A program made the position numbers and the translations under genes. Below the pieces are notes generated by a model that was not told the DNA's origin, did no database searches, and was given only the letters and a program-made list of their open reading frames with translations. A DNA stretch of 33,036 nucleotides from a virus: positions 1 through 33,036 of IMG/VR virus record IMGVR_UViG_3300039796_000001. One strand, 5' to 3'. Each line of letters starts with the position of its first letter. The stretch's first letter is position 1. Below, in pieces: positions 2,308 to 33,036 of the stretch.

Positions 2308-2541
2308 TCACCTAATTGTGCTGAAAATAGAAAATGTAAAATGCTTAAGAGGAAAATTTATATTACTAACAGTATAATTTGATTGAATTAATCTGACATA
2401 GGCTAATTTTTCAGAAAATGTCATTTTATTACCGTCTGAATTGTACATTTTTATATCATCCAACGTATCTGATTTTGAAAATGCACTGACTTTATGAAAA
2501 GTATCTAACATTTTCTGTAGCTCATTATAGTTAGGTAGCAT
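2308..2541 (-). CDS. Hypothetical 77-aa protein.
   Basis: An internal ATG at 2541 (MLPNYNELQK...) overlaps the terL stop by 11 nt. The longer track ORF from 2586 would run deep into terL. Confidence 0.4.
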   Translation of the reverse strand: MLPNYNELQKMLDTFHKVSAFSKSDTLDDIKMYNSDGNKMTFSEKLAYVRLIQSNYTVSNINFPLKHFTFSIFSTIR

Positions 2542-3994: not shown

Positions 3995-3996
3995 TT

Positions 3997-5964: not shown

Positions 5965-5968
5965 GGGC

Positions 5969-9735: not shown

Positions 9736-9737
9736 GA

Positions 9738-11861
9738 CTATTTCTTCCTATGTGCATAAGCCACTAAGCTATCAGTAAATGGTTGTGAGTAAACCACAGT
9801 CCCAGCTTGGTCAACTGCCATGATCAAACCATCAGGCGTATTGGTAATAGTTAACGGATTGCGATCTAAATTAAAAAATTCAGTCAGAGGGTTTTTGACG
9901 TGTTGCCAAACTTCTTTAGCTAAGATAGTCCCTGTTGATGCGGTTGGGAAAAGACCATGGCTTTCTTCTTCAACTATCGTTTTAAACGGTTTGATCGGGT
10001 TGATACGAAATCCTAATGCTTCGTATGCTTCCTCTTTCACATGCTGGGCTAAATGAGCAGCTTCACTATCGGTAATACCTAGGTCTTTGGTGTTGAAGAT
10101 ATAACCATCACCTTTTGAAATGCTGTAAGCTTTAGAGAAATTGTTGTTAAACATTTGCATGTAGTCATTAATCTTTGTTAAACCTAAATCGTTATGGATT
10201 AAGCCTTGATACTTAACATAGTTCATGGACATGTTTACAACACTTAAGGTACGTGCAGGATCACCCGATTGGCTTAAATAATTAAAGATATCGCTGTTGT
10301 CGGGGCTAGGATTATCTTTAATCGAATTCCAGCTACTGCTCCAAAAACCTGAGGAGGCATTTAATTGTGCAACAACCAAATTCTTTAAGGATTTGTCATT
10401 GGTTTCGGAATCTTTTGCATTAGCAATTCCTATTTTTGAAAAATCTTGACCCGTTTGATTAGCAGAAATCAATTGTCGTAAAAAAGCCGGATCGGTATTG
10501 CCCTGTAATAACCCCGCGGTATAGGCCACTTCCTGTTGCAAAGGGTGCTGCATGCTTGAAGCAACATAGACCTTATTACGCGTATCGTGATGCTCTAATA
10601 CTTGTAGTAATCCATCAGGATCAGCGCCTTGCATAAAAGAAGATTGCGCTTGCATCTTTAAATCATTAGGGATGGGCTGAATAAAGTGGTTATCGATATG
10701 CATCGCATGACCGAGTTGCACCGATCGTGAAATGTAATCGTTATAGGCTGTTCGTGGATCGATACTATTATAATTCTGCGCGTAATCTTTAAGAATGGCT
10801 TGTCCTTGCGGCGTTTGTTCCATAATCTGTGCATAATCACCCGAGGTAAAATTATTCACCAGATGCTGTAAGCCAGATCGTTCACCTTTCTCCGCTTGAG
10901 TCAGTAATCCATTTTTAGTATTTAATCCATCTAAACGCTGCTTAAGTAATTGCCAATTTTCACCGTTATTGAATAGACCTTGTGCTTTTTGTACACCTTG
11001 GCCAAATAACACCACTTCATTGAGATGATCGGGTGTCAATTTCATCCAGGCAAGTGGATTAATCGCATTCCCTTTCACTAAATCGGATTTAACACCCTGC
11101 ATCGTCAAATCATTGTCATAGTGATTTTGCAGATGTAAGGTGTCTTGAGAGATAGGCGTATTAGATTTATCGACGTTCTGTGCGAACGGTGAGGCTAATA
11201 CCGTCTGTAAATCCGCTGATCGTGCTTCAGGGTTTTGTTGCAATTGATGCAATGCCTGTAGGCTATCCATCGTGTGAGATAGCGTTTGAAACAATACACT
11301 ACCTTGTTTGGGTGTAAGGATTCGGCCTAATAACGCTTTTTCTACCGTTTGATGCGCGACATCTAACTTTTGCTGAAATAACTTCTCATCATTGACCGAG
11401 GAATAAAGGTCTTTTAAGACATTGGGCCATTCCGTATAAAACTGGCCGGTTAATTTCAGCTGGTTAGTTTGATAGTTCGTTAATTGCGCTTGTGCATTAA
11501 CTTGTTGACCACTGGATTGCAGTAAATAATCCAACTGACCTTTAGTTTTATTATTAACTGGCGTCGTGTTTTTAATATTATCGAGTTGTTGCTGCGTATC
11601 TTGAGCAATTTGGCTAGCTAATTGAGGTTGAGTTTTAAGTTTAAGCAACGCATCGGATTTAATTTGACTGGCACTGCTGGTAGCTTGTAATAAGAGTGCG
11701 CTACTTTTTTCTTGTTCCATTCCTTGAGCGGTTTTCATTAAGTCTTGTGAAACAGTGCCTAATGCTTGACCTATCGCATCAAAGCCTTTGGCAGCGCTGG
11801 CCACCGGCGTATCACGAATAATCGGAATAGCATCACGGTATTGTGCTAAGGGTTCAGCCAT
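9738..11861 (-). CDS. Internal virion protein (gp15 position).
   Basis: 707 aa and Q-rich. The call is by synteny only. Confidence 0.55.
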   Translation of the reverse strand: MAEPLAQYRDAIPIIRDTPVASAAKGFDAIGQALGTVSQDLMKTAQGMEQEKSSALLLQATSSASQIKSDALLKLKTQPQLASQIAQDTQQQLDNIKNTTPVNNKTKGQLDYLLQSSGQQVNAQAQLTNYQTNQLKLTGQFYTEWPNVLKDLYSSVNDEKLFQQKLDVAHQTVEKALLGRILTPKQGSVLFQTLSHTMDSLQALHQLQQNPEARSADLQTVLASPFAQNVDKSNTPISQDTLHLQNHYDNDLTMQGVKSDLVKGNAINPLAWMKLTPDHLNEVVLFGQGVQKAQGLFNNGENWQLLKQRLDGLNTKNGLLTQAEKGERSGLQHLVNNFTSGDYAQIMEQTPQGQAILKDYAQNYNSIDPRTAYNDYISRSVQLGHAMHIDNHFIQPIPNDLKMQAQSSFMQGADPDGLLQVLEHHDTRNKVYVASSMQHPLQQEVAYTAGLLQGNTDPAFLRQLISANQTGQDFSKIGIANAKDSETNDKSLKNLVVAQLNASSGFWSSSWNSIKDNPSPDNSDIFNYLSQSGDPARTLSVVNMSMNYVKYQGLIHNDLGLTKINDYMQMFNNNFSKAYSISKGDGYIFNTKDLGITDSEAAHLAQHVKEEAYEALGFRINPIKPFKTIVEEESHGLFPTASTGTILAKEVWQHVKNPLTEFFNLDRNPLTITNTPDGLIMAVDQAGTVVYSQPFTDSLVAYAHRKK

Positions 11862-12294
11862 TGGTTTTAGGCCTCATCCCGTTCAGTTGTCCAAAGGTCA
11901 TTAAGGTATTAGCCCCATCACCAAATAACTGGCCATATAAACTATATTTTACATTCTGTTTTTCGATATCTACATTGGCATCTGAAATACTCTTTTGTGT
12001 ATCGAGATTAGCTTGTTGTCTGGCGGCTATATTTTCTGTATTACGTTGAATCGCATTAAAGCTCGCCGATGAAAAAGCGACACCACGCGTTGTCATCTGG
12101 GCGGTTTGATGTTGTATGACCTGATCGAGACTATCTAAATTACTTAAGGTTTTTTGTTGATACTGCAATTCATTTTGTTTAGCTTGTAAATCTAATTGAT
12201 TTTCTTGTGCGTTAGCGGCTTGTGCCTCCATCACACCTTTCCCTACTTCCATGGCGGCAGCAGTCGCTAAAATCAGTAACCCGGCTTGTGGCAT
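11854..12294 (-). CDS. Small internal virion protein (gp13/gp14 position).
   Basis: 146 aa with an N-terminal hydrophobic helix (LLILATAAAMEVG) followed by a Q-rich coiled coil. It lies directly downstream of tail tubular B. Confidence 0.55.
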   Translation of the reverse strand: MPQAGLLILATAAAMEVGKGVMEAQAANAQENQLDLQAKQNELQYQQKTLSNLDSLDQVIQHQTAQMTTRGVAFSSASFNAIQRNTENIAARQQANLDTQKSISDANVDIEKQNVKYSLYGQLFGDGANTLMTFGQLNGMRPKTNG

Positions 12295-12301
12295 AAGTCT
12301 C

Positions 12302-14275
12302 CTAAATCATGGTCGCCGTCACTTGATAAGCGATGGCGGTAATGTGCAAATCAAAGGGTGCATTCTGTTTGATCACAAAGGTTTTATCGCGATTCCAACC
12401 TAAAATAGGTACTGTAATAGCGGTTCCTGAACGTGTGGTTAAATTTTTGCCTTGTTGAATATCGGTAAATACTTGGTAATTGACTAATTGATCATTGATG
12501 TAAAAATTTAATGATTGGAAATATTCGACATAAATCTTGGTGGTTTGCTTCATCAAATCAGCATGCGATGACCCAGCATAAAAATACATCGGTCGGATTT
12601 CGACAGGATAAAGTAGCCCCACAAAACAAGTGCCACTATTTTTTTCAGGGTTGTTTACTTGGATTTTCCCTTCTTTAACCAGATAAACGCCGTAATCCTG
12701 GTTATCAAAAATTACTTGAACACTAATGCCTTCAAAACGATTGAGGCCTTCAATCAGACCACTCTCCGACAATTGTTTAATCTCATAGCCATCTATTTTT
12801 ACGTTTTCATCCATCTTTTCTAAGACGGTTTGTTGGCTATTTTCATATATTTTTAGCAAATAGATCGTATTGTTTATAGCTACAATATCTTGTATCTGCA
12901 CCTGTTCTTGTACTGAGATGGGTGTTAAAGCGGCAAGATTAATTTCATGGGCAAATTGAAAAACCGTAATACTATGATCTGGATTTAAAAAATAAATAAA
13001 ATTGTCTTGGGAAGTATCTGTACCACGTAGTAAGACGGCTTTGGTTGGGTTTTTAACTAAATGACTAGAAGCCTGTGAAATATTACTGGCTAGATAACTC
13101 TGGCCAATCCCTTGAAATCGAAAGTTAATGATTGCATTGCCAGTTTTGTTTAGATAATAACTGTCGTTCAAATAACTTAAAGGTTTTAGCCTCTCAGAAA
13201 CACCATACGCGGATTGTTGACGTATAGAGAACGTACTTGGAGTTAAACCCACATCCTGTTCTTGTGGGGCTACGAACTCATAATTAGCGGTATAAACTTC
13301 TAATTGTTTACCACTATTCATCCACACAATGCCGCCGGAATCACTTTGACCTAAGGTATAAATAATGGCATCGGTATCTTGGCCAGTACCTACATCAAAG
13401 TTAACCGGCGCATTAATTCTGGAACCAAATAGTGTATTAGATAAGGTGGCTGTATTAGCAAACCATAAACGGTTCTGGTAATACAGTACTCGCGATGGAT
13501 AGCCAAGTGCTGCAGAAAAAGCCGGTTTGCGTATGGAAAAGCGAGTCCCGGTGGTATCACCTGTCTTAAACGGCACTATCTCATTGGCAGTAAAAATCGT
13601 GTTGCCACCCGTATAATTAACATCCGTGATAATGCCATAACCAATGGGACTGAACTCACTGGTACCTGCACCAATTAATTCACCGCCCGTCCATGTGCCA
13701 TCAAATTGCACGCCAAATATCGTTGCGGTTACTTTTTGATTAGCACTGGTAATAGAAATCTTTGCTTTAGAGTAATCAACATCGCCGAAATCATAAGCCG
13801 GTAAGGGATATAGATTTAATACCTCGTAAATAAAGACAGTATTAGTGTAATCTTTAATCGTAATACGTGCCGGTGGGTATTTACCGTGTACTAAAATTAA
13901 TGAATCATTATCGAGGGTATAATCAATATCATTTAAATCGGCAGAAAGATAAGGTGTCGTTAGCTTTTGGTAATAACTTAAACTTTCATCATTGTTTATT
14001 TTATAAACATCAAATTGTTTATCCAAGCTGAGTAGAATATAAAAGTGATTATTCTTATCTTGAAAGCCATATAGCTTTGAATTGGGGTCGTGGTTATTCG
14101 TTTGAAGTAAAAATTTTGTTCCTTTTCTCTTTTTGGCTAAACCCGTTGTGCCCACTTCAACATTTAAAAGAGACTGAGCAGCCGTTAAATAATCTTTAAA
14201 GTCAGTACGGTGATAATGTACCGCATCAATTTCACCACTACTGAACATCGCTTGACGAATCAGTTCAGTTGCCAT
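12302..14275 (-). CDS. Tail tubular protein B (gp12-like).
   Basis: 657 aa, immediately after the gp11-like gene in T7-type synteny. Confidence 0.75.
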   Translation of the reverse strand: MATELIRQAMFSSGEIDAVHYHRTDFKDYLTAAQSLLNVEVGTTGLAKKRKGTKFLLQTNNHDPNSKLYGFQDKNNHFYILLSLDKQFDVYKINNDESLSYYQKLTTPYLSADLNDIDYTLDNDSLILVHGKYPPARITIKDYTNTVFIYEVLNLYPLPAYDFGDVDYSKAKISITSANQKVTATIFGVQFDGTWTGGELIGAGTSEFSPIGYGIITDVNYTGGNTIFTANEIVPFKTGDTTGTRFSIRKPAFSAALGYPSRVLYYQNRLWFANTATLSNTLFGSRINAPVNFDVGTGQDTDAIIYTLGQSDSGGIVWMNSGKQLEVYTANYEFVAPQEQDVGLTPSTFSIRQQSAYGVSERLKPLSYLNDSYYLNKTGNAIINFRFQGIGQSYLASNISQASSHLVKNPTKAVLLRGTDTSQDNFIYFLNPDHSITVFQFAHEINLAALTPISVQEQVQIQDIVAINNTIYLLKIYENSQQTVLEKMDENVKIDGYEIKQLSESGLIEGLNRFEGISVQVIFDNQDYGVYLVKEGKIQVNNPEKNSGTCFVGLLYPVEIRPMYFYAGSSHADLMKQTTKIYVEYFQSLNFYINDQLVNYQVFTDIQQGKNLTTRSGTAITVPILGWNRDKTFVIKQNAPFDLHITAIAYQVTATMI

Positions 14276-14276
14276 G

Positions 14277-14852
14277 TTATACCCACATCACACGATCAAA
14301 GTCGTTATACGGTGCAGTTTTAATATCCCGTTCCATGTTATTGAGTAATAGCGCATTCGTTTTTTCTTGTAAGAATTTGGTATTTAATAAATTAGAGAGT
14401 TGAACATTTTGTGTCAGTGGAATTGCCGCATCAGCGGCTGCATATAATGCCAAAGTCCGTGCAAAGATCGGTGGCATGATGCTGTAATCCATATCATTGA
14501 CCACATAATAATAGGTAAATGGTTTAGTATTGGTCAGGATTAATTCATCAATGATGGCAAAATCTAAAACAAAACGGTTGTTACCCAATTGAACAAAGCG
14601 TCCGTAATCAAAGGGTAATTGATAGCTATAACGATAATCGGGTGAAAAGTTTTGCGTAATCGGGGTATTATCTTCACGGTATTTAATAGCAAAACGCCAA
14701 GTTTCGCTGAGTAATAAGATAGGTAATAAGCTATCTAACTTCTCCGACATAAACTTGGCTGATTCACTTTCAGTTTCATTCGCAACAGGCGAAAACCCTA
14801 AAGCTAGCAGTGCTTGATTAATCACGGTTAGCTTTGAAAAAGGTAAGGCCAT
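14277..14852 (-). CDS. Tail tubular protein A (gp11-like).
   Basis: 191 aa (T7 gp11 is ~196 aa). The N-terminus INQALLALG and the position after the capsid gene fit gp11. Confidence 0.75.
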   Translation of the reverse strand: MALPFSKLTVINQALLALGFSPVANETESESAKFMSEKLDSLLPILLLSETWRFAIKYREDNTPITQNFSPDYRYSYQLPFDYGRFVQLGNNRFVLDFAIIDELILTNTKPFTYYYVVNDMDYSIMPPIFARTLALYAAADAAIPLTQNVQLSNLLNTKFLQEKTNALLLNNMERDIKTAPYNDFDRVMWV

Positions 14853-14869
14853 ATTTACTTTATTTTTCC

Positions 14870-15151
14870 TTAAGGCGAAGGATTTAAACTCGCTTTGGGT
14901 GGTTTTGTTTTATCCGTTTCCTTATTTATAACGGCATACATACCCATACCGTCTTTTTCTGAGGAAACGAAGACGAGATCATTAACTTTGACGATACCCT
15001 CTTCATAGAAATCATTCATATAGCTATCTTTTAATAAAGTAGCGTTATCGTCTTCTGTGGAAGCAGAAAACACATTGGGTGCGGTACCTGGGAAGCCGCC
15101 TACTAAAGGCGTAAAGGTTTTAAAATTTGATGTTTTAACAGGGCTTGCCAT
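14870..15151 (-). CDS. Small virion-module protein of 93 aa. It may also be the C-terminal extension of a frameshifted capsid.
   Basis: AGGAG lies 5 nt upstream of the ATG at 15151 (MASPVKTSNF...). The same frame stays open upstream to 15259, across the capsid 3' end. Confidence 0.6.
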   Translation of the reverse strand: MASPVKTSNFKTFTPLVGGFPGTAPNVFSASTEDDNATLLKDSYMNDFYEEGIVKVNDLVFVSSEKDGMGMYAVINKETDKTKPPKASLNPSP

Positions 15152-15159
15152 GATGACTC

Positions 15160-16050
15160 CTAAGGATTTGGGGCAAATTTTTGATTCGCGGTGATTAAGG
15201 CAATCCCGCGGGGTTGAATGATCTTGGCACCGCTGGTTAAACAGGTAAGTAATTCCCAACGATCTTGATGCGGTAACCAGGTAATACTCGTCATAATATC
15301 CCGGTTATAACCTTGGATAATGGCATCACGATGCACGACAGGTACTGTATATTTAAATAACCCGGTAGCATCCGCTACACGTGGAATACTATTAACCCCA
15401 TTTTCACCTAAGAATCGAAAATCAATGTCTAAATAGACTTTAACTTTGTTATTCGTTAAAGGTTTAACGTCGTTATAGAAGAAGTTGGTTACTTGCTTGT
15501 CGCCATACAAAGAGGGCTTTAGTAAAGCAGGCACCCATGTACTTACCTCCAGATCATGTACATCCATCCCTTGGCTTTCTAAATAGGAAATCGCTAAGGC
15601 ATATTTCTCTTCATTAATACCCGTGTTGACACCGACATTTAATGGCACTGTATAAATGTCGCCATTGATAAACGCAGGGTCACTAAAGATAGCATTAATT
15701 TTAATGTAATCGGTTAAACGCGCAGCCGCTAAACCGTGTAACCGGGCATGGTCACGAATCTTATCAAAGTTATACAAAGTCTTTTCACCACCGCCAATCA
15801 CCGTCTTAAGATGGTAATCATTGGTAGGTACTTGCACATTGGTTTCATTAACCGGTGTGACAAAAATATCTGTCGGTGCAAAATTGGTTTGATTCATTTC
15901 CACCAGATCAGAAACAGGCACATTCAGTGCGGTACCATGTAATCCATGGCGTTCTTCAATGGTATCTTGGAGTTTTAAACGGTTTTGATATTGCAGCGTG
16001 ACTTCGGTATCAAATAATTGACACGCGGCTTCTAAATTTACTTCTGGCAT
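15160..16050 (-). CDS. Major capsid protein.
   Basis: ~296 aa between the scaffold and tail tubular A. The ATG at 16050 is preceded by AGG. The track ORF starts two codons earlier, at the TTG at 16056. Confidence 0.8.
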   Translation of the reverse strand: MPEVNLEAACQLFDTEVTLQYQNRLKLQDTIEERHGLHGTALNVPVSDLVEMNQTNFAPTDIFVTPVNETNVQVPTNDYHLKTVIGGGEKTLYNFDKIRDHARLHGLAAARLTDYIKINAIFSDPAFINGDIYTVPLNVGVNTGINEEKYALAISYLESQGMDVHDLEVSTWVPALLKPSLYGDKQVTNFFYNDVKPLTNNKVKVYLDIDFRFLGENGVNSIPRVADATGLFKYTVPVVHRDAIIQGYNRDIMTSITWLPHQDRWELLTCLTSGAKIIQPRGIALITANQKFAPNP

Positions 16051-16230
16051 ACGCAACCTAATAAATAAAAATTAATTAATTTCCATCTATCAGGTTGCCT
16101 AAAATAAAATTAGGGCTGATATGGCACACGATCGACTAAAAAGGTTACGAAAAGGCTTTTTAGTTGATAATTTCAGTTTAGTGCTTGTATTTAAAAGCGC
16201 AACTACTTTATAAGGTATAAAAAGTAGTTT

Positions 16231-16896
16231 TTACTTGTTTTTCCTGGCTTCAGCCACTTCATTCGCAAGATTAATGTATCGTTTCTTGTTTTTCTCAGTA
16301 GGATTTTTTTGGTATTCGTGCGCTATATTGAGCAACTCTGTTCTACCTTCATAAGGATCGGAAAGATTGGCACGTTGATTACTCAACCCAGGTACTTGAC
16401 TGTTTAATACTTGATCACGGTGTTTCATGGCATCTGACATGGCATTCTCATCTCCTAAAATCGTATTTAAAACGGTGTTATGCAAAGCAGCGGGATATAT
16501 TTTTGTTACATAATCCTCAACCACTTTCAATTGACTACCGAGCTGCTTTTTACGTTCTTCTAGTTGTGTTTGGTATTGCTGTTGTTGTTCCTGCATAGAG
16601 ACTAGCGTTTTATTAAACTGTTCCTGATTTAATCCAGCAGATTTAGCTAAGGACTGTAGATCATTCAGTACAGGGTCAGGCAATGAAACCTCGGGCAAAC
16701 TATAGTTTTGGGGAACTTCATAACTTTTAAGCTTTTCTTGCAAGGCTTTATTTTCATTAAAGACCTTAGCACTGTTCTTATAGGCCTTTTCTAGTTCATC
16801 GACACTGGTGTATTTACCTGCATAGAGTTTAGGTGGTTCAGAGGATATAATTTCTTCATTGACTGGATTTTCTACTTCATTATTTGTTATTTCCAT
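16231..16896 (-). CDS. Scaffolding protein.
   Basis: 221 aa, acidic and Q-rich with predicted coiled coil. The motif KYTSVDELEKAYKNS is typical of podovirus scaffolds, and the gene sits between portal and capsid. Confidence 0.7.
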   Translation of the reverse strand: MEITNNEVENPVNEEIISSEPPKLYAGKYTSVDELEKAYKNSAKVFNENKALQEKLKSYEVPQNYSLPEVSLPDPVLNDLQSLAKSAGLNQEQFNKTLVSMQEQQQQYQTQLEERKKQLGSQLKVVEDYVTKIYPAALHNTVLNTILGDENAMSDAMKHRDQVLNSQVPGLSNQRANLSDPYEGRTELLNIAHEYQKNPTEKNKKRYINLANEVAEARKNK

Positions 16897-17239
16897 TATT
16901 TTCCTCCAGTAATTGATGAATAGTAGCTATTCTGTTTTGAATGTATTCCCATGCATAATTTTCATCTGATGAAGAATGAAAAATATGTTCTAATATAGTT
17001 TCTAATATTTTTCCTGTAAAAAAATGTCTACCATCTTCATCCAATACAAATAGATTAAAAATTTTATAATCTTCCTTGTTAATAATTTTATTTTCTAATA
17101 ATTTAGATAATCCCTTACGTATTGGCTCTTTCCTATCACTTAAATAGACGCTAAAGGCTTCAGCTTTAAAAAATTCCTTTACTATAAAATTTTTAAAGTT
17201 AATTACAAGTTCACTGTAATGTTTAGGAGGCGTCATCAT
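16880..17239 (-). CDS. Hypothetical protein, paralog of 17223-17489.
   Basis: The motifs LSKLLENKIINKEDYKIFNLF and YAWEYIQNRIATIHQLLEE match those of the neighbouring ORF. Confidence 0.55.
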   Translation of the reverse strand: MMTPPKHYSELVINFKNFIVKEFFKAEAFSVYLSDRKEPIRKGLSKLLENKIINKEDYKIFNLFVLDEDGRHFFTGKILETILEHIFHSSSDENYAWEYIQNRIATIHQLLEENNGNNK

Positions 17240-17489
17240 AGGCTATATCCTCTAGGAGTTGATAAATATAAGTCATGGTATTTTGGATATCACGCCACAC
17301 TGAACGACGTCCATCGCTCCAAGCAAATCCTGGCTCAGTTGAAGTTGGTGATTCTTCCATCGCAATGTGTAGTAATTGATTTTTAAGAAATTCAGCAGCT
17401 TGTGTCTGAGTAAACAGCAAAAATAAATTGTACTGATGTTTATCTATTTTCTTTTTATCTAATAACTGCTTGAGTTTAGATATCATCAA
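17223..17489 (-). CDS. Hypothetical protein, paralog of 16880-17239.
   Basis: The motifs LKQLLDKKKIDKHQYNLFLLF and FAWSDGRRSVWRDIQNTMTYIYQLLED match those of the neighbouring ORF. Confidence 0.55.
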   Translation of the reverse strand: MMISKLKQLLDKKKIDKHQYNLFLLFTQTQAAEFLKNQLLHIAMEESPTSTEPGFAWSDGRRSVWRDIQNTMTYIYQLLEDIAYDDAS

Positions 17490-19063
17490 AATTGCACTTG
17501 TGAAGGACTAGGAATCGAAATCGGACTCGCACTCGTGGCTGGTGTGGGAAGTTGTGGCGTAGGCGTTTGTGATTGTTGAATCTGCTGTGCCATATGTTGT
17601 AAGAAGCTTGCAAATTCTTCTTTTGATTTCATGAGCTTAGAAGGTAGATTGAGTTTATCAGCTAAGAATGGTAATACTTCTTCCATCTTGGTAGCCGTTA
17701 ACACAGCCCCTTCCCCACCAAATTGCTGAAGAATCTGCGCCATCATCGTAAAGTGGCTTAAGTCATCTTGTTTTTGCAGATCGTATAAGGGACTTTGAAA
17801 ATCAAAACGCAATAAATGCGGATTAATGTCACTAACACTTCTATCTTGAGACAGTAATCGTCGTTTGGCTAGAATCTTAGCGCTGATGGTAAAAATCTGC
17901 TTTGGTAGTTCATTAATCAATCTTGAAATATCAGTAGCGCTGGTTCGTTGTGCCCTATTCTCTCGAACAGATACTTCCGTTGCTGATTTAACAGGTGTAT
18001 TGACTTCACCTATTGGATCGACTTGAAAGCCATCCCGAATAATTTGTCTTAAATCCCTTATATGTTCGAGCACTTCAGGGTATTCAGGCAGTTGTAGTGC
18101 TTCTAAGGGGTTACGACCTTGTGGGTTACGTGCAATTAATGCACCCGCCCATTGTCTGACCATATGCGGATTAAAGTACTTGTCCGCGTCATAAAATAAG
18201 GGCGGATTAGCCTTATACGCTAAGTTTTTACGGCTATATTCGATGATACGATTGAGATCACGTATGGTAGGTAATAAATCAATCCCTATACCTCGTCCTT
18301 CACATTCCCCTGGTCTGACACGATCGCGGTAAATAATAATTTGATTGTACTCACGTTCAGTTTCCCAAAGTGGGGTTAAGGGATCTTCTTCTAATACCGC
18401 ATAGAGATAAAATTGATTCTCTTTTAACTTAATCTGACCATAGATAACCACAAACAATTCATTGGGTTGCTCGAGTAATCGGCGTTTGTTTTTATATTTT
18501 GAGAAGTCTTCCGCTATTTTTCTACCACTCATCTTGCATTGATACCAACACGTATTTAAGACATCATCCGTGCTGTACTCTATGGTCAAAGCGATCGCTG
18601 GAATAGAGCGAAAATAAAGCGGTGTCACATCATCAATCGACTCTACCCAAAGTGCTGCTGTACCGCCTACTAAATCTAAATTGGATGATGCCACCATGCG
18701 GGCTAGATTCGATTGGTTTAAATAGAAAAATAAACGATCATTTATTTCATCAGCAACGGGTTGTAATTCGGAAATGTTATCTTTCTTAGTAAAATGCGGG
18801 TCGAGGCTTAATTTGCCCCAGGTACGATCTTGCGGAAGTAACAGGCCATGCAAATCATTAGCACGTTGATAGGCGCATAGAAGAGCCGTATTGTCCCACA
18901 TCATTAAGCCTGTGGGTTTACCTTCATCGCTATAATTGAATTTAATGTTAAACGCATCCCGATCAGGAATAACGTAGGTATATAAATCCTTATATAAGGT
19001 TAACCATCTATCCTTATAGCGTTTGCTTTCTTCATAACGTGCATACAGTTTAGCAAAGTTCAT
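17486..19063 (-). CDS. Portal protein (gp8-like).
   Basis: 525 aa (T7 gp8 is ~536 aa). It lies upstream of scaffold and capsid and has a P/T/S-rich C-terminal tail. Confidence 0.8.
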   Translation of the reverse strand: MNFAKLYARYEESKRYKDRWLTLYKDLYTYVIPDRDAFNIKFNYSDEGKPTGLMMWDNTALLCAYQRANDLHGLLLPQDRTWGKLSLDPHFTKKDNISELQPVADEINDRLFFYLNQSNLARMVASSNLDLVGGTAALWVESIDDVTPLYFRSIPAIALTIEYSTDDVLNTCWYQCKMSGRKIAEDFSKYKNKRRLLEQPNELFVVIYGQIKLKENQFYLYAVLEEDPLTPLWETEREYNQIIIYRDRVRPGECEGRGIGIDLLPTIRDLNRIIEYSRKNLAYKANPPLFYDADKYFNPHMVRQWAGALIARNPQGRNPLEALQLPEYPEVLEHIRDLRQIIRDGFQVDPIGEVNTPVKSATEVSVRENRAQRTSATDISRLINELPKQIFTISAKILAKRRLLSQDRSVSDINPHLLRFDFQSPLYDLQKQDDLSHFTMMAQILQQFGGEGAVLTATKMEEVLPFLADKLNLPSKLMKSKEEFASFLQHMAQQIQQSQTPTPQLPTPATSASPISIPSPSQVQF

Positions 19064-19260
19064 TGGATAATCTGCGCAGGTGGATTGGGATTGTCAGGAT
19101 TACTAAACTGTTGTGCATCTTGGCCTTTAACAATCGCCATTCGGGCGTTGGTAAGTGCTTTCACCTTTTCTTGTATTGTTTGCTTATCGAGTTGAATTTG
19201 TTCATTCATTAATCGATTAGCTTCATCATCTCCGCCGCCACCACTCATGCACGCCTCCAA
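19060..19260 (-). CDS. Hypothetical small protein preceding the portal gene.
   Basis: 66 aa. Its 4-nt overlap with the portal start suggests translational coupling. Confidence 0.45.
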   Translation of the reverse strand: MEACMSGGGGDDEANRLMNEQIQLDKQTIQEKVKALTNARMAIVKGQDAQQFSNPDNPNPPAQIIQ

Positions 19261-19658
19261 TGAACCAATAACTCATAATTGGTTTTATCCTTATGTTTTA
19301 TAAGCTTTTTATATAAATGTTTCGGATTAAACGTCCAACCAATCTCAACGCCGCTAAAATAACGACACACCTCATTACAGGTGTACCATTTCAATGGCCA
19401 TTCTTTGACCTTTTTCTTTTTTTTAATCCATACTGCAATAAAAGCGCTTAACATCGGTAGTTTTTTAATACTATCTAGGTTTTTACTCACATCATTTGAT
19501 TTCAAAATACGGTAAATAAAACCAAAGGGAGCAATCTCAAACAAAATACAATGGTCACCTTCGTAACATAGTAAAGCACTATGAACTAATTCCTGGCTAA
19601 AACTAAAAACGTTATATTTCCCAATGCCGCGGTTATAAAATAAAAAAACCGCAATCAC
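19245..19658 (-). CDS. Hypothetical protein, possibly a permuted NlpC/P60-type (YiiX-like) cysteine amidase.
   Basis: 137 aa. A His-then-Cys order (VHSALL..ILFEIAPFG ... WYTCNEVCRYF) recalls permuted papain-like amidases. The match is weak. Confidence 0.3.
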   Translation of the reverse strand: MIAVFLFYNRGIGKYNVFSFSQELVHSALLCYEGDHCILFEIAPFGFIYRILKSNDVSKNLDSIKKLPMLSAFIAVWIKKKKKVKEWPLKWYTCNEVCRYFSGVEIGWTFNPKHLYKKLIKHKDKTNYELLVHWRRA

Positions 19659-19843
19659 TGACGATTTCTTAATTTCTTTAAGGTCTCGGCTAATTTCGCT
19701 CTTTTAGCTAATAGTGTATCTTTAGAGTTAGCCGCTTTCTCTAATTTACCTTCCGGTATCTTTTCACCTTTTTTCATATGAAGTGATTTACGTAAAGCAC
19801 CTTTATGTTTAATCGCTTTCTGAATCCATTTTTTAGCCATCAC
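19655..19843 (-). CDS. Small basic protein, DUF3008-like.
   Basis: The pattern HKGALRKSLHMKKGEKIP...LAKRAKLAETLKKL is recalled from the DUF3008 family. Confidence 0.55.
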   Translation of the reverse strand: MMAKKWIQKAIKHKGALRKSLHMKKGEKIPEGKLEKAANSKDTLLAKRAKLAETLKKLRNRQ

Positions 19844-20219
19844 TTAATACCCTTTTAATTTCATCTAACTCTTGCCTCAATAGGAGTAGCTCATGCGCGC
19901 CTACGGCAAATTCTGTGGGGAAACGTCGTTCTAAAATCCAAGCGCGTGATTGCCAGCTTTTTACACCCGCTTTAATATCATCCAATAATTGGATAATGGC
20001 TTCACATTCACACTTTTTTATAGTGCTGGAAAATTCGGCTAATACGGTTTTTTTTCCTTCTTTTAAATCAGAAAGACCTATATTAATCCAATCGGACAAT
20101 GTCCCGCGATTAATGCCGTTTGACTCAGCAGCCAAGGAATAAGGGACTAAATTTGAAATGGCAGCAATAATCTTTTCTGCACGTTCGGAATTAAATTTGG
20201 TAGGGCGACCTACTTTCAT
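19833..20219 (-). CDS. HTH protein of the terminase-small-subunit-like type.
   Basis: It contains GRPTKFNSERAEKIIAAISN...INRGTLSDWI...EFSSTIKK...WQSRAWILERRFPTEF. This GRP...HTH...W.LERR.P pattern is seen in many phage TerS-like proteins. Confidence 0.55.
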   Translation of the reverse strand: MKVGRPTKFNSERAEKIIAAISNLVPYSLAAESNGINRGTLSDWINIGLSDLKEGKKTVLAEFSSTIKKCECEAIIQLLDDIKAGVKSWQSRAWILERRFPTEFAVGAHELLLLRQELDEIKRVLSDG

Positions 20220-20395
20220 CCCCGATTATGATCCACAAAAATAGGTTCTGCATTGCCTAAATAGCGTTTATTAACCAGCGCATAGGCACTTGCTGCTTGG
20301 GATTTCGCTAGCTTGACATAAAGAGATTCAGAGCTCGAAGAATCGGAAGCTGTGGCAGGAAGTGTTGTATTTTCTTTATGAACTTTATTACTCAT
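20216..20395 (-). CDS. Hypothetical 59-aa protein, not in the ORF track.
   Basis: My translation is MSNKVHKENTTLPATASDSSSSESLYVKLAKSQAASAYALVNKRYLGNAEPIFVDHNRG*. The stop overlaps the next ATG as ATGA. No clear SD. Confidence 0.35.
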   Translation of the reverse strand: MSNKVHKENTTLPATASDSSSSESLYVKLAKSQAASAYALVNKRYLGNAEPIFVDHNRG

Positions 20396-20557
20396 TTAAA
20401 AAGAAACAGTTACTATGTAGATAATACTATAGGATAAAAAATAGATATAAACACCTACTTTATATGGTAGGTTTTTTTATGCTGCCATCATTGGGAAAGT
20501 GACGGGATCGTTTGCATGTTTCATGAAAAAATTCAAAATAGAATGCATGATCTCTCC

Positions 20558-20839
20558 TTAAAAGAAATCAAAATAGTCATGTAAAATATCGTAGGCTTCT
20601 TTGATGGTATAAGATGGCTCTTTGGAATAACCTACGTCAGCCATTAGGTTTAACCAATTCTTTTGCTCCTGGGTTAAATTAATTTTTTTACTTTTTAAAA
20701 AAATGAGCTCATAGGTGGTATAACGTGTTTGGCATTTAACGCATTTGTGTCGACGAATATGTGAGCGGCCATCCAATCCTGATCTAGAATCACTTATACG
20801 TGTCTTTGGATAATTACAGTCAGAATTAATACAACGCAT
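20558..20839 (-). CDS. NrdR-like zinc-ribbon protein lacking an ATP-cone.
   Basis: MRCINSDCNYPKTRISDSRSGLDGRSHIRRHKCVKCQTRYTTYE matches the NrdR N-terminal pattern C..C....V.DSR......RRR..C..C..RFTT.E. At 93 aa it is too short to hold an ATP-cone. Confidence 0.6.
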   Translation of the reverse strand: MRCINSDCNYPKTRISDSRSGLDGRSHIRRHKCVKCQTRYTTYELIFLKSKKINLTQEQKNWLNLMADVGYSKEPSYTIKEAYDILHDYFDFF

Positions 20840-21202
20840 CTATTTCTCCGGTATCACTGTGAAATCTCGGTATTCAAAATATCCTTTTTTATCAGCCCTA
20901 ATTTTCTCGTAATGCGGTAATGATAGATTAGCAATTCTTGTTAACCTTTCCATTACCCAATCTATAGTTGCTTCGGCGGAACAAATTGAATTCTTTTGAA
21001 GAGATTTTAGATAGGCTTGTCCTGCTGGTTTTTTTAAAAGACTGCTCGCCATTTTAGAAACATGTTTAGGAGCAAAACCCGCATCGATTGCAGCTTGGGA
21101 AGGATTCATCTGCCCAGTCGTTTTCATTTGCTCGATGATATTATTGTAGAAATTGAATTGTTTTGGAGTAAGACCGTTAGGTAATCGAGGTTCATTCGCC
21201 AT
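20840..21202 (-). CDS. terS: Terminase small subunit, Terminase_2-type.
   Basis: LTPKQFNFYNNII...NPSQAAIDAGFAPKHVSKMASSLLKKPAGQAYL matches the LT.KQ..F...Y...N...AA..AGYS...A...AS.LL pattern. Confidence 0.65.
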   Translation of the reverse strand: MANEPRLPNGLTPKQFNFYNNIIEQMKTTGQMNPSQAAIDAGFAPKHVSKMASSLLKKPAGQAYLKSLQKNSICSAEATIDWVMERLTRIANLSLPHYEKIRADKKGYFEYRDFTVIPEK

Positions 21203-22570: not shown

Positions 22571-22794
22571 CGTCTTATTTCCTTTCTAATAGTTCCTCTC
22601 ATAATAGCGGCATGAATCATCAGAATGAATCTAATTTCATGAAGTTCATAGCCTTTATTTTTTAAATAAAGTTTGTGACAAGCCTTAATGAGGTCATTAA
22701 TAGGCTTAAAATGATAGAGAGAAGAGAAAAAGTGTATGCCTGCACGGCATATTTTTTTGTAGGTCAGATCAATCGTAGCAATAGAAGTTTCCAT
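22555..22794 (-). CDS. Hypothetical protein, first gene of the leftward operon.
   Basis: 79 aa, from the ORF track. It lies next to the divergent control region. Confidence 0.4.
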   Translation of the reverse strand: METSIATIDLTYKKICRAGIHFFSSLYHFKPINDLIKACHKLYLKNKGYELHEIRFILMIHAAIMRGTIRKEIRRCRER

Positions 22795-22994
22795 ACTTTA
22801 CTTTCCGCCCGCTTAAAAAAAGTGCGCCATACAAAAGGGAGTAAATATAACGCACAATAAAGCTCCTATCCTACTATTTTAACATATATTTTTTTTATTA
22901 TCGAACGCATAACTTATCAACAATTTCTGTGGGTAACTCTGTTGATAGATACTTAACAATCCACCTAGATGTTGTAGTCATTACCCTAGATATA

Positions 22995-23039
22995 GATCAA
23001 CCCAGATTGATCAAATGTTGATCAAATGTTGATCACACT
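22995..23039. promoter_or_regulatory. GATC-containing palindromic operator-like array.
   Basis: TTGATCAAATG occurs at 23007-23017 and 23018-23028, with TTGATCACAC at 23029-23038 and AGATCAA at 22994-23000. The TTGATCAA core is a perfect palindrome. The last three GATC sites (23009, 23020, 23031) are 11 bp apart. Confidence 0.55.
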
Positions 23040-23062
23040 CTAAAGCTTTCCTGAATTCTTAC

Positions 23063-23071
23063 TGATATAAT
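23063..23071 (+). promoter_or_regulatory. Extended -10 promoter of the PAS-LuxR gene.
   Basis: TGaTATAAT is read directly at 23063-23071 with no good -35. AGGAG lies at 23098-23102 before the ATG at 23111. Confidence 0.45.
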
Positions 23072-23110
23072 GTAAGTTCTCAACACATATAAAAATTAGG
23101 AGTAGTTTTT

Positions 23111-23836
23111 ATGAATCTAAGCGCAGAACAAAAACGAGAAAAACTAATAAAATTTTCCGAACATTTTCCTGTTAATACATTCCCTGGCCTGACTACAATT
23201 ATGTCACCAGAAAATACATATTTTCATTCCTCTAAAACTGTTATTAAAACGATAGGATGTAAAAGTGAAGAAGAAGCGCACGATATTCCATTTAAGGATA
23301 TACCAGCTCATAGCCATACTAATCATGTTCAATGGTCAATAGATAATAAGGCTACGATGGAAAGTAAAAAAGTAATTAGAATTATTAGTTATGGTCATTT
23401 TTCAGATGGATGGAAAGTATATTTAGGACATCAAAAACCCATTATAGATGATGAAAGTGAAGAAGCTATAGGAGTTATTGGTAATTATATAGATATAACT
23501 GAGAACTCATTTTTTGATATAGGACGACTTATCCTAATGGAAAAAAATGGCTTAAAGAGAAAACAATTCCAATATAGAATACAAAGTAACCAAGGGTTTG
23601 AGGGATTATGCAAAAGAGAACAAGAAGTTTTATTTTGGTACTTGCATAATCTAAATTCGCCAGCTATATCAAGAAGATTATCTACTGAGACTAAGCCAAT
23701 CACTCCACAAACTGTTAGATCATACATAAGAAATGCAAAACTAAAGTTAGGAGTTAGCACAAAAGAGCAGCTATTAGAAAAATGTATATCTATAGGGTTT
23801 ATGGCGACCGTACCCGAATCATTATTCATAGACTAG
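23111..23836 (+). CDS. PAS-like sensor domain plus LuxR/GerE-type HTH transcription regulator.
   Basis: The C-terminus LCKREQEVLFWYLHNLNSPAISRRLS...ITPQTVRSYIRNAKLKLGVSTKEQL is a canonical LuxR-type HTH. The N-terminal ~150 aa end in a PAS-like AIGVIGNYIDITE. Confidence 0.8.
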   Translation: MNLSAEQKREKLIKFSEHFPVNTFPGLTTIMSPENTYFHSSKTVIKTIGCKSEEEAHDIPFKDIPAHSHTNHVQWSIDNKATMESKKVIRIISYGHFSDGWKVYLGHQKPIIDDESEEAIGVIGNYIDITENSFFDIGRLILMEKNGLKRKQFQYRIQSNQGFEGLCKREQEVLFWYLHNLNSPAISRRLSTETKPITPQTVRSYIRNAKLKLGVSTKEQLLEKCISIGFMATVPESLFID

Positions 23837-23843
23837 TTAATTA

Positions 23844-24245
23844 TCAATAGGCCATTTTATTTTTAGGATGGTCTATTATATCAAAGTATTTACAAAATAT
23901 ATTGTAAATTACATCCAAATCAAAAGGTTTTATTATGGACTCATTTATTCCTGATATTGTATTTTTATTATGTAATTCATAATTAGCAGTCATAAGTACA
24001 ATAGGTGTTTCACTGTCAGTTTTTCTAAACTCTTCAACAAATTCTACCCCTCCCATAACTGGCATCTTTACGTCGGTAAAAATAAAATCAATTTTTTCTT
24101 TAGTCGATTTAATAAAATCTAATCCCTCTTGACCATTGTTAGCTATAAAACTAGTCATATTTAATCGACCAAAAAAGTCTGTTAATACTCTTTGCTGTAT
24201 CTGGTTATCTTCAATAATTAAAATATTCATTTTTTTTAATTCCAT
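23844..24245 (-). CDS. Stand-alone response-regulator receiver domain (CheY-like).
   Basis: 133 aa. All receiver residues are present: E12-D13, D58 (FTDVKMP), T86 (LMTAN) and K106 (IKPF). There is no output domain. Confidence 0.85.
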   Translation of the reverse strand: MELKKMNILIIEDNQIQQRVLTDFFGRLNMTSFIANNGQEGLDFIKSTKEKIDFIFTDVKMPVMGGVEFVEEFRKTDSETPIVLMTANYELHNKNTISGINESIIKPFDLDVIYNIFCKYFDIIDHPKNKMAY

Positions 24246-24371
24246 TGTTATGTAAATAGGAATTAACTATTTTAATCTTATGGAGTTCATAAAAAAACGA
24301 CCAAACTGTTGTGACCGAAGTGTGGTAAGCCAAACACCTACATAATTCTTGTATGCATATTTATTTTATTC

Positions 24372-24399
24372 TTGTTAATTTATCGATAAATGATAGAAT
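24372..24399 (+). promoter_or_regulatory. Sigma70-like promoter for the candidate small RNA.
   Basis: The -35 is TTGTTA (24372-24377), followed by a 16-nt spacer. The extended -10 is TGaTAGAAT (24391-24399). Confidence 0.45.
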
Positions 24400-24404
24400 T
24401 ATTG

Positions 24405-24475
24405 TTCGCACAGATGCCTATTATGTTGGGTAGAGCGAGCCTAGGCTGAGTACGAAAGTGCTTGGCCTTTTTTGT
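24405..24475 (+). ncRNA. Candidate ~70-nt small RNA of unknown function.
   Basis: A promoter sits just upstream and an intrinsic terminator at the 3' end. No credible ORF or RBS lies between them. Confidence 0.4.
24443..24475 (+). terminator. Intrinsic terminator hairpin with a GAAA loop and U-run.
   Basis: aggctgagtac-GAAA-gtgcttggcct forms an 11 bp stem including G-U pairs. It is followed by tttttgttt. Confidence 0.55.
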
Positions 24476-26807: not shown

Positions 26808-26883
26808 TGCACTACACCGTTTATTAGTATATTACACCTTTATACACCGTATGGATTAGTTTAGTGCATAACTACATTGCACC
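26808..26883. repeat. Iteron or centromere-like T(A/G)CACC hexamers upstream of parA.
   Basis: TGCACT lies at 26808, TACACC at 26813, 26833 and 26843, and TGCACC at 26878. Confidence 0.55.
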
Positions 26884-26933
26884 TATCAGTGTAATGTATT
26901 AATATACCTCTACCTTATATAAAGAGTATAAAA

Positions 26934-28040: not shown

Positions 28041-28346
28041 ATGAAACAATTTAGTAAAGAACAATATGAAAACATTAAAGACATATCTTCAGAAATATAT
28101 CATGAAGTTTGTAACCAAGTATGGAATCGTGCTGATGACCTATCAATAGAAATGGGATTTAACAGAGAAAGAAAATCAGAAGTTATAGATTTAATACATA
28201 TGGCTATTGCTTCAGAACTACTTACTCGTGGTGTCGCTATTAGAACATATAATCACATAATTGCTGATTACTCAGGGCACAAAACTACTGAAGAACAACT
28301 AAGAGAAGAATTAGAAAATAAGAGGGATAACAATGATAACAATTAA
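28041..28346 (+). CDS. Small paralog 1 of a tandem three-gene family.
   Basis: It shares the N-terminal QYE(N/D)IK..S..IY.EV motif with the next two ORFs. GAGGGG RBS. Confidence 0.55.
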   Translation: MKQFSKEQYENIKDISSEIYHEVCNQVWNRADDLSIEMGFNRERKSEVIDLIHMAIASELLTRGVAIRTYNHIIADYSGHKTTEEQLREELENKRDNNDNN

Positions 28347-28668
28347 ACCTTATCAGTATGAAGATATAAAAACGTACACCCATAAAATATATTTAGAAGT
28401 TGAAAAAATGGTACGTAACTATTCCTCGTATATGGCAAAAGACTTTGGTACTGAGCATGCCGATATATTTGCAGAATTAATATTATTTAAGCTTTCTGAA
28501 GAGGTTAATTTTAATTCTGTTCAATTAGGTTTCAAAAACGATATGAAATACAAACATAAAATGGAAAATAACGAAACAGAAATTAAATCTGAAATAGGGG
28601 AAATGATACATAATCTTAAAATAGATATGGAGGAGATGATTTCAAGATTAAAAGCAATGAAAGAATAA
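28333..28668 (+). CDS. Small paralog 2.
   Basis: It shares QYEDIKTYTHKIYLEVEKMVRNYSSYMAKDF...FAELILFKLSEEV with paralog 3. GAGGGA RBS. Confidence 0.6.
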   Translation: MITIKPYQYEDIKTYTHKIYLEVEKMVRNYSSYMAKDFGTEHADIFAELILFKLSEEVNFNSVQLGFKNDMKYKHKMENNETEIKSEIGEMIHNLKIDMEEMISRLKAMKE

Positions 28669-28680
28669 GAAGGTGAAATA

Positions 28681-28977
28681 ATGAAAAAAATTACTATAGA
28701 CCAATATGAAGATATAGAAAAATATTCTATAAAAATACATTTTGAAATTATGAAAATGGTACGTAACTATTCATCCTTTATGGCAAAAGAATTAGATTCT
28801 AAATACGACGATAAATTTGCAGAATTAATGTTATTCAAAATATCTGGTGAAATTTCTGACAACGCATTTTATTTAGGGAAAGGAAATGCGGTTACAAATG
28901 AAAGTAAAAATGATTTAGATAACATGATGGATAAAATAATATCTGTATTTGAACAATATAAGAATAATAGGGAGTGA
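28681..28977 (+). CDS. Small paralog 3.
   Basis: It contains QYEDIEKYSIKIHFEIMKMVRNYSSFMAKEL...FAELMLFKISGEI. It shares nucleotide-level identity blocks with paralog 2 (aaaatggtacgtaactattc, tttgcagaattaat). AAGGTGA RBS. Confidence 0.6.
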   Translation: MKKITIDQYEDIEKYSIKIHFEIMKMVRNYSSFMAKELDSKYDDKFAELMLFKISGEISDNAFYLGKGNAVTNESKNDLDNMMDKIISVFEQYKNNRE

Positions 28978-32405: not shown

Positions 32406-33017
32406 ATGATTGACCCTAATAAAAAAGAAATAAATCACAATAAAAGGTTATGTTTTTTAAAGAACATTATTACCAACCCTAATATTATAGTGGGCGATTA
32501 TACCTATTACGATGACCCAGAGGATGTTAATAATTTTAATAAAAACGTACTTTATCACTTCGACTTTATTGGCGATAAATTGATAATTGGTAAATTCTGT
32601 CAGATAGCAACTGGCGTAAGATTTATTATGAATGGCGCTGTTCATTCTATAGAAGGATTTTCTACCTTCCCATTCCTTATTTTTGGGAAAGACTGGGGAG
32701 AAATCCCTGAATATCCACAATCAAAAGGTGATACGGTAATAGGGAATGATGTTTGGATTGGTAACTCGGTTACCATAATGCCAGGTATTAAGATAGGCGA
32801 TGGGGCCATATTGGCAACGAACGCCGTTATTACTAAAGATGTAGAGCCTTATACTATTGTAGGTGGCAATCCTGGTAAAGTTATAAGAAAGCGATTCGAT
32901 GACGAAACTACCGAAAAACTATTAAAGTTAAAATGGTGGGATTGGCCGATAGAAAAAATACGTAAATATTCGGGTCATATTTCAAAAGGTACTTTAATTA
33001 TTGCAAAAGAGATATAA
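32406..33017 (+). CDS. vat: Vat-family (xenobiotic/streptogramin A) O-acetyltransferase, hexapeptide-repeat type.
   Basis: 203 aa. It contains VGDYTYYDD..., LIIGKFCQIATGVRFIMNGAVHSIEGFSTFPF, GDTVIGNDVWIGNSVTIMPGIKIGDGAILATNAVITKDVEPYTIVGGNPGKVIRKRF and LKWWDWPIEKI. These follow Vat(D)-type sequences nearly motif for motif, including the catalytic His in NGA.H. Confidence 0.85.
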   Translation: MIDPNKKEINHNKRLCFLKNIITNPNIIVGDYTYYDDPEDVNNFNKNVLYHFDFIGDKLIIGKFCQIATGVRFIMNGAVHSIEGFSTFPFLIFGKDWGEIPEYPQSKGDTVIGNDVWIGNSVTIMPGIKIGDGAILATNAVITKDVEPYTIVGGNPGKVIRKRFDDETTEKLLKLKWWDWPIEKIRKYSGHISKGTLIIAKEI

Positions 33018-33036
33018 AAATGAGTAAAGCAATAAC
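32910..33036. repeat. Terminal overlap copy B, identical to 1-127.
   Basis: Same as copy A. It includes the vat 3' end and the first 17 nt of the DUF1640-like gene (ATG at 33020). Confidence 0.95.

Follow-up and report, generated by a model that had tools for sequence, protein, structure and literature searches.

The virus record IMGVR_UViG_3300039796_000001 of IMG/VR carries two convergent genes, one for a transcription regulator related to VqmA and one for a single-domain response-regulator receiver, at the point where its leftward virion genes and its rightward plasmid-maintenance genes diverge. We analysed this pair within the whole stretch of 33,036 nt, which is the window of all locus comparisons below. 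The listing of open reading frames (ORFs) places both genes exactly where the initial annotation had put them, and the stop codons of the two genes are indeed separated by only 7 nt (TTAATTA). The coordinates of the features discussed are collected in Table 1.

Table 1. Genes, domains and putative control elements of the locus, in window coordinates (aa, amino acids; HTH, helix-turn-helix; UTR, untranslated region)
Feature	Position	Strand	Remarks
VqmA-family PAS + LuxR-HTH transcription regulator	23111..23836	+	ORF of 241 aa, stop TAG; VqmA is the best PDB match
PAS-like sensor domain, ~aa 20-135	23168..23515	+	from the secondary structure of the model; hypervariable, swappable part
LuxR/GerE HTH, aa 166-221	23606..23773	+	Pfam PF00196, E 1e-5, above cut-off
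Single-domain response-regulator receiver	23844..24245	-	133 aa, stop TGA; Pfam PF00072 (Response_reg), E 1.4e-19
Regulator promoter, extended -10 TGATATAAT	23063..23071	+	read from sequence; conserved in phage-plasmid loci
5'UTR hairpin of regulator	23088..23113	+	A-U/G-U pairs only; GGAG in 4-nt loop, AUG in stem
GATC-rich 11-mer repeats	22994..23037	.	TTGATCAAATG twice, TTGATCA and inverted GATCAAC; just upstream of regulator promoter
Three DnaA-box-like 9-mers	22914..22948	.	TTATCAACA / TTACCCACA / CTATCAACA; directly upstream of leftward promoter
Leftward promoter, extended -10 TGTTAAAAT	22876..22884	-	equivalent strong promoters at the same place in L005, L009 and L097/98
Leader terminator	22815..22855	-	10-11 bp hairpin, loop UUACUCCCUUUUG, then U7; between leftward promoter and first leftward gene
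First leftward gene, small ORF of 79 aa	22555..22794	-	divergent from regulator, 316 nt away; same place and size as VP882 qtip
Second leftward small ORF, 72 aa	22352..22570	-	followed by VRR-NUC, small-terminase-like and virion genes
Candidate small RNA	24372..24475	+	promoter TTGTTA-16-TAGAAT, ~70-nt transcript, GAAA-capped terminator and T6

The window covers one full circular element (unit length 32,909 bp, GC content 35.6%): positions 1-127 are repeated exactly at 32910-33036, and this 127-bp terminal overlap marks the genome as circular (or terminally redundant). Its minus strand encodes T7-type portal, capsid, tail-tubular and terminase proteins, and its other genes include a ParE-type toxin-antitoxin pair, SSB, a putative Rep, ParA and RecE/RecT. 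With virion and packaging genes beside partition and maintenance genes, on a circle without a detected integrase, the element is a phage-plasmid. Pfam, PHROGs and NCBIfam detected no integrase, kinase or CI/Cro-type HTH protein in any window ORF, which bears out the earlier statements that the element has neither a kinase nor a CI/Cro pair; HisKA and HATPase domains are likewise missing from the element, and the regulator is the sole classical HTH transcription factor detected on it. DNA similarity searches of INPHARED phages and PLSDB plasmids matched the SSB gene alone, and no part of the window matched an RNA family of Rfam.

The initial annotation had compared the regulator with VqmA, proposing a PAS fold followed by a LuxR-type HTH, and had set structure prediction with a Foldseek search as a check beforehand. 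Both domains were found, the HTH by the GerE model of Pfam and the PAS fold by AlphaFold2 and Foldseek; the PAS models of Pfam gave no match to the regulator. In the AlphaFold2 model (predicted local distance difference test score, pLDDT, 83) the N-terminal domain is of the PAS-type alpha/beta fold, and the top eight Foldseek matches of this model in the PDB are all VqmA chains (E 5e-14 to 2e-12), with LOV/PAS domains next (E ~3e-6). Sequence comparison gave the same answer: using phmmer against the PDB, Vibrio cholerae VqmA (6ugl, 6kju, 6ide) matched aa 33-238 of the regulator at E 7e-7, and this protein and the VqmA of phage VP882 (7dwm) were the only full-length sequence matches there. A profile of 17 close homologues, every one 241-246 aa long, reached E 7e-12 to V. 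cholerae VqmA and 1.7e-11 to VP882 VqmA. Identity to VqmA is only ~20-25%, and alignment places a 5-residue insertion in the HTH turn of the regulator relative to VqmA. The regulator is nevertheless a true VqmA homologue in sequence and predicted fold, beyond a shared architecture. More widely, the regulator profile found 481 representative clusters at E<=1e-10, nearly all of them full-length matches of ~225-250 aa, and VqmA-like PAS-LuxR proteins thus form a broad superfamily. Plasmid-borne relatives are annotated as a 'PAS and helix-turn-helix domain-containing protein' in Arsenophonus and as VqmA proper in Vibrionaceae. Searching phages by tblastn with the regulator returned nothing at 1e-3, and scanning GTDB genomes with the regulator profile gave no match.

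The partner receiver is complete, as had been claimed. Direct indexing places E12, D13, D58, T86, A87, K106 and P107 at the expected positions, and D58 and K106 are invariant among nine partner receivers. Its homologues begin at MNIL, which corresponds to M6 of the window ORF; the true start may therefore lie at 24230, in which case the residue numbers would be five lower. The best family matches are the receiver domains of the hybrid kinases RcsC, LuxN, ArcB and LetS, and the closest relatives are the partner receivers of chromosomal copies of the pair (58-62% identity). No kinase was found near these chromosomal pairs, in flanks of 6-10 kb on each side (loci L001, L004 and L094) or of <3 kb (L111). 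The receiver had been described as an orphan, but it is not a stray one, because it invariably accompanies this regulator subfamily, in host chromosomes too. The Arsenophonus relative of the regulator has no receiver neighbour, and the pairing is therefore specific to this subfamily.

Two further observations concern the receiver gene. The phage-plasmid receivers (window 23844-23880, L005, L009, L097, L098 and L107) end in a tail of the form (D/G)HSxNKM(A/T)Y(K), which is missing from chromosomal L001, L094 and L111 and present only as a trace in L004. In addition, a weak hairpin with an invariant T7-8 run lies 60-75 nt upstream of the receiver start (24298-24317, minus strand), with equivalents in phage L005 and chromosomal L001, L004 and L094; in the window a short upstream ORF (ATG AAC TCC ATA AGA TTA AAA TAG) follows it. 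The hairpin and T-run could be a leader or attenuator.

The convergent pair lies amid housekeeping genes on a 305-kb contig of GCA_964271535.1 (metK, ahcY, rpiA, lolA), on a 541/68-kb contig (rpsA, cmk, pyrF, lapB) and on a 99-kb contig, and it also occurs on a chromosomal-looking contig of 3.9 kb. All these contigs have a GC content of 35-37%, similar to that of the element. The extended -10 promoter and the 5'UTR of the regulator are common to the window and to chromosomal L004 and L094, in which the -10 element reads TGATATACT. We conclude with high confidence that both genes are host-derived and were copied from a host chromosome. The host is an uncultured low-GC gammaproteobacterium; a Legionellales-like lineage is hinted at by ankyrin genes on the 541/68-kb contig and by weak matches of the Rep-like protein in plasmids of Legionella and Aquicella.

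The pair is conserved in 12 of 12 contexts, four of them chromosomal and eight of them phage-plasmid lineages, the latter being all that were recovered with enough sequence (the window, L005, L006/7/8, L009/10, L096/97, L098, L107-109 and L112). In every related phage-plasmid recovered it stands, as first described for the window, at the divergence point, flanked on one side by the leftward operon of small-ORF, VRR-NUC and small-terminase genes and on the other by the (toxin-antitoxin)/SSB/Rep-like/ParA genes, and this position is fixed despite differing virion modules (T7-like versus P22-like portal). Scanning IMG/VR and JGI metagenomes with the Rep-like protein, its alignment or the regulator profile contributed one and four more loci, all short; no relative without the cassette was found in them, sampling being thin. 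The phage-plasmid backbones are mosaic. The window and L009 have Rep-like proteins that are 98% identical and regulators that are 52% identical, and the cassette flanks of the window and L098 are near-identical beside regulators of 39% identity.

The most telling comparison is that of L006 with L112. Over 3.9 kb the two loci are 98-100% identical in 60-nt windows except in regulator codons ~14-133 (L006:10041-10400), where nucleotide identity falls to 50-75%; at the protein level their PAS domains are 50% identical, their DNA-binding domains 96% and their receivers 90%, and each PAS domain is 79-81% identical to a different chromosomal allele. A similar contrast separates the window from L005 (PAS 36%, DNA-binding domain 87% identical). 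Among relatives in general PAS identity ranges from 33 to 76% and DNA-binding domain identity from 43 to 87%, and for most phage copies the nearest relative of the PAS domain is chromosomal. L006 and L112 thus differ by a natural sensor-domain swap, and the cassette recombines with host alleles; the comparison is direct evidence of selection, on the element, for what the sensor recognises, with retention of the output domain. That the pair is a core, recombining cassette of this phage-plasmid family can be stated with high confidence.

The cassette may instead be host-mimic cargo, kept because the phage copy binds host target promoters, much as VqmA-phage binds PvqmR; it would then reprogram host physiology to the advantage of the resident element and have no role in the choice of the element between maintenance and lysis. 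The phage and chromosomal DNA-binding domains are 71-83% identical and have a common recognition-helix motif, TVRSY, while the PAS domains diverge; the promoter and 5'UTR of the regulator are host-like; and no site for it was found on the element. Sporadic cargo, however, is normally patchy, yet the pair sits at one site in 8/8 lineages across virion modules, and the PAS swaps retain the phage-type DNA-binding domain (96%) instead of importing that of the host. We consider cargo of this kind rather unlikely as the explanation, although it is compatible with the input role that we favour below and does not exclude it.

The initial annotation's comparison with VqmA probably does not extend to the ligand. 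Binding of 3,5-dimethylpyrazin-2-ol (DPO) by VqmA relies on F67, F99 and K101, and K101R and F67A abolish it (10.1101/2019.12.19.881847). In an ungapped alignment between a conserved W and P these residues correspond to W75, G106 and Q108 of the regulator, so that by sequence alignment the DPO-contact triad is not kept; within the subfamily G106 does not vary, and position 108 is occupied by Q or H. Because the DPO-binding residues are not conserved, the regulator is unlikely to sense the VP882 autoinducer, and its ligand is probably another molecule. The pocket-equivalent residues of the regulator are W75, S93, G95, Y104, G106 and Q108. Across the subfamily, four residue classes can be told apart at positions 44, 79, 95, 104 and 108, and two of these classes occur in both chromosomal and phage copies; several ligand classes are thus probable.

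Upstream of the regulator, the 5'UTR hairpin, which presents the Shine-Dalgarno sequence (GGAG) in its loop, is conserved between phage and chromosomal copies, where A-U pairs change to G-U; it has an energy z-score of only -1.2 and could be a translational control or thermosensing element. Further upstream lie the repeats (22995-23039) that the initial annotation called operator-like. They are real: two perfect tandem copies of TTGATCAAATG occupy 23007-23028, a third TTGATCA follows at 23029, and GATCAAC stands in inverted orientation at 22995. Such 11-mers occur in the window, L005, L097 and L098, and not in L006 or L009. The neighbouring 9-mers, which the initial annotation did not list, form a separate cluster (of 25 one-mismatch matches across the 33 kb, 5 lie inside 171 nt) and are kept as a block in all phage-plasmid relatives. 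What did not hold is their assignment to the regulator. A position-weight-matrix scan of the chromosomal loci revealed no 9-mer cluster near the modules there, so the 9-mers are not supported as its operators, and neither set of repeats can be assigned to it because both are backbone-specific, do not co-vary with its DNA-binding domain and, in the case of the 9-mers, resemble DnaA boxes.

This resemblance suggests a different use for the repeats. The 9-mers and the GATC-rich 11-mers might be replication-origin/DnaA sites, or sites of a backbone protein, a reading that concerns the repeats only, is not exclusive of the others and strikes us as possible though doubtful. The 9-mers are clustered and agree with the DnaA box TTATNCACA in 7-8 of their 9 positions, four GATC sites occur in 50 nt with an AT-rich run adjacent, the elements are independent of the regulator allele, and a search beside the putative Rep gene gave no iterons. 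Yet position 6 of the box is mostly A, not C, and relative to the leftward promoter the 9-mer block occupies roughly -45 to -80, where activators typically bind. To our knowledge, moreover, Dam/SeqA is not expected in Legionellales-like hosts, which also counts against an origin.

The leftward promoter is followed by a leader terminator that is well conserved, with 96.7% of cells paired across 6 loci and compensatory changes at two pairs; its U-G pairs are valid only on minus-strand RNA. Its loop always carries an anti-Shine-Dalgarno-like ACUCC(C/U)UU, with a conserved CUCCC motif. No antiterminator or Q-like protein for it was identified on the element.

The arrangement also invites the idea that the regulator is an immunity (maintenance) repressor in place of CI, which would bind the control region without ligand and be released or altered by it, with a sign opposite to that of VqmA-phage. 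As the first rightward gene, divergent from the lytic operon, it occupies the classical repressor position; no other repressor is detectable; and its alleles are highly variable inside conserved flanks, as in lambdoid immunity regions. Operators should then co-vary with the protein, but the control regions of the window and L098 are near-identical beside DNA-binding domains of 44% identity, and the chromosomal copies have no phage to repress. We therefore regard a repressor as improbable.

We favour instead a role of the cassette as an input to the decision between maintenance and virion production. In the scheme that we infer for ligand binding, DNA target, direction of control, the receiver-regulator link and the effect on maintenance or virion production, the two-gene sensory cassette is kept at the junction of the leftward virion/packaging operon and the plasmid-maintenance genes. 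The regulator, expressed from its own extended -10 promoter, would dimerise via its PAS domain and bind a host-made small molecule, probably not DPO, and the liganded dimer would alter transcription of the element through the conserved HTH. Its most likely target would be the 316-bp divergent control region with the strong leftward promoter, the leader terminator, the 79-aa ORF and the packaging/virion genes. The receiver would be phosphorylated on D58 by a host kinase or phosphorelay, as a second, phosphorylation-based input, and would either act on the regulator or drain phosphate from the host relay. Through exchange of the sensor domain with host alleles, each phage-plasmid would read the signal class of its current host.

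An input role of this kind is plausible because of the position of the pair, its universality, its sensor swapping and the lack of another detectable regulator; we give it an even chance. The decision module of the initial annotation is suggested by position, conservation and sensor swapping; no target site or output was identified. More tentative is the complete picture, in which a previously unrecognised family of circular phage-plasmids of Legionellales-like bacteria would carry a two-input eavesdropping switch, made of a VqmA-type receptor whose PAS domain is repeatedly exchanged for the chromosomal allele of the current host and of a co-captured, phosphorelay-tapping receiver, that times exit to virion production; we think this possible though doubtful.

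Several results weigh against the input role. No regulator binding site was identified on the element, where the PvqmR box of VqmA has no match within 3 mismatches, and the best motif common to the receiver-upstream regions of all contexts scored 102 against a null of 98.5 +/- 1.7, which is not significant. The control-region repeats are phage-backbone elements that are missing beside chromosomal copies and stay the same where the adjacent DNA-binding domains have only 43-87% identity. The leftward promoter looks as if it needs no activator and has a terminator behind it, so that late expression is possibly gated by an antiterminator and not by the regulator. Nothing beyond invariant adjacency links receiver and regulator functionally, and their domain identities are uncorrelated. 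The 79-aa ORF was considered as a Qtip homologue and rejected, having no similarity to Qtip, and no CI for it to inactivate was detected on the element by the family searches named above. For the identity of the host, finally, its S1 protein is at most 65% identical to that of any GTDB species representative.

As to the small ORFs, the first leftward ORF (79/83 aa) has 62-86% aa identity in relatives, and its AlphaFold2 model (three helices, pLDDT 77) has no fold match in the PDB. A terminator-like hairpin, GTATGCCTGCACGGCATAT then T7, lies inside it at 22734-22759 (codons I-C-R-A-G-I); in L005 the stem is kept by amino-acid-altering changes (ICQAAI), which suggests selection on nucleic-acid structure as well as on protein. 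The candidate small RNA is back to back with the receiver upstream region. Its terminator is conserved in L005, L009, L097 and L098, its body in L097 and L098 and different in L005 and L009; it has no Rfam match, and predicted pairing with the translation-initiation regions of regulator and receiver gave no signal, the best z (~-3.5) being to unrelated genes.

Elsewhere on the element, the region upstream of parA (26808-26885) contains several (T)ACACC repeats as well as long inverted repeats, which may form a partition site. Three successive ORFs of ~100 aa at 28041-28977, without family match, include at least two clear paralogues, the second and third (YEDI..Y..KI..E..KMVRNYSS.MAK), and a 93-aa protein with an NrdR-like zinc ribbon (E 7e-10) is encoded at 20558-20839 on the minus strand among the small-terminase-like genes of the late operon. 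The virion module of the window (2531-21202) was compared with those of L006, L009, L098 and L107: it is T7-type, with portal, capsid and tail-tubular genes, whereas relatives with the same regulatory and plasmid backbone have a P22-type portal and a terminase in opposite orientation. The virion module is thus exchanged within one phage-plasmid family.

Among known systems the closest is phage VP882, likewise a phage-plasmid with a ~240-aa homologue of a host PAS-LuxR receptor, whose vqmA is divergent from a 79-aa small ORF (qtip) and convergent with the next gene, and whose VqmA has the fold of the regulator and full-length sequence homology to it. Beyond the low identity and the divergent DPO triad, however, the window element differs in being circular and ParA-partitioned, without TelN, CI or Q, and in having podovirus-type virion genes; its small ORF, unrelated to Qtip, heads the packaging operon behind a terminator, it co-inherits a receiver domain, and its host is not Vibrio, Shewanella or Salmonella. 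The VqmA-VqmR system of V. cholerae (6ide, 6ugl, 6kju) resembles it in combining a PAS ligand domain with a LuxR HTH and in the occurrence of a chromosomal copy beside a phage copy. Of the ligand contacts, F67 to W75 is conservative whereas F99 to G106 and K101 to Q108 or H are replacements; the HTH-turn insertion and the partner receiver are further differences. VqmA targets carry a GG-N6-CC (or GG-N9-CC) box, whereas the window has neither a GG-N6-CC box nor vqmR (Rfam).

The transcription factor-small ORF (TF-smORF) lysis-induction modules (Silpe et al., Nature 2023, PMC10432266) combine a transcription factor with a counter-oriented, homologue-less small ORF near the rep/par genes of a plasmid-like phage, and the window shows their layout, a small ORF of <100 aa divergent from a transcription factor. 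In those modules the small ORF inactivates the CI repressor (PMC10432266), whereas no CI is detectable in the window and its small ORF is the first cistron of a 20-kb late operon. Like orphan receivers of the CheY/Spo0F type, the window receiver has a phosphoacceptor pocket that is complete and lacks both an output domain and a kinase beside it, but unlike them it is invariably tail to tail with a PAS-LuxR regulator, and the phage copies carry an extra C-terminal tail. Lambdoid PR'-tR' late control shares with the window a strong promoter, a ~60-nt leader and an intrinsic terminator before packaging/virion genes, a likeness that is anatomical only; no Q-like protein was found in the window, and the loop of its terminator has the conserved CUCCC.

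VqmA homologues have been described as confined to Vibrio and VP882 (10.1101/2019.12.19.881847), and the sole documented cases of VqmA-based phage eavesdropping so far come from a single group of close relatives among linear plasmid phages, which all detect DPO (PMC12802170); in the literature we found nothing comparable on VqmA-like proteins elsewhere or on receiver pairs in phage-plasmids. The locus would bring the same eavesdropping idea to an unrelated phage-plasmid family and host lineage, and adds to the known cases a dedicated receiver, a ligand pocket that differs and falls into several classes, and natural swaps of the PAS domain alone. It offers a testable system for how mobile elements retune signal specificity, for the non-DPO ligands of the wider PAS-LuxR superfamily, with its hundreds of clusters, and for the integration of phosphorelay input with small-molecule sensing. 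If the two-input switch is real, it would have no precedent among VqmA-type phage sensors, either in lying outside the VP882 group or in having a ligand other than DPO, and no earlier phage sensory module would join a small-molecule receptor to a phospho-receiver.

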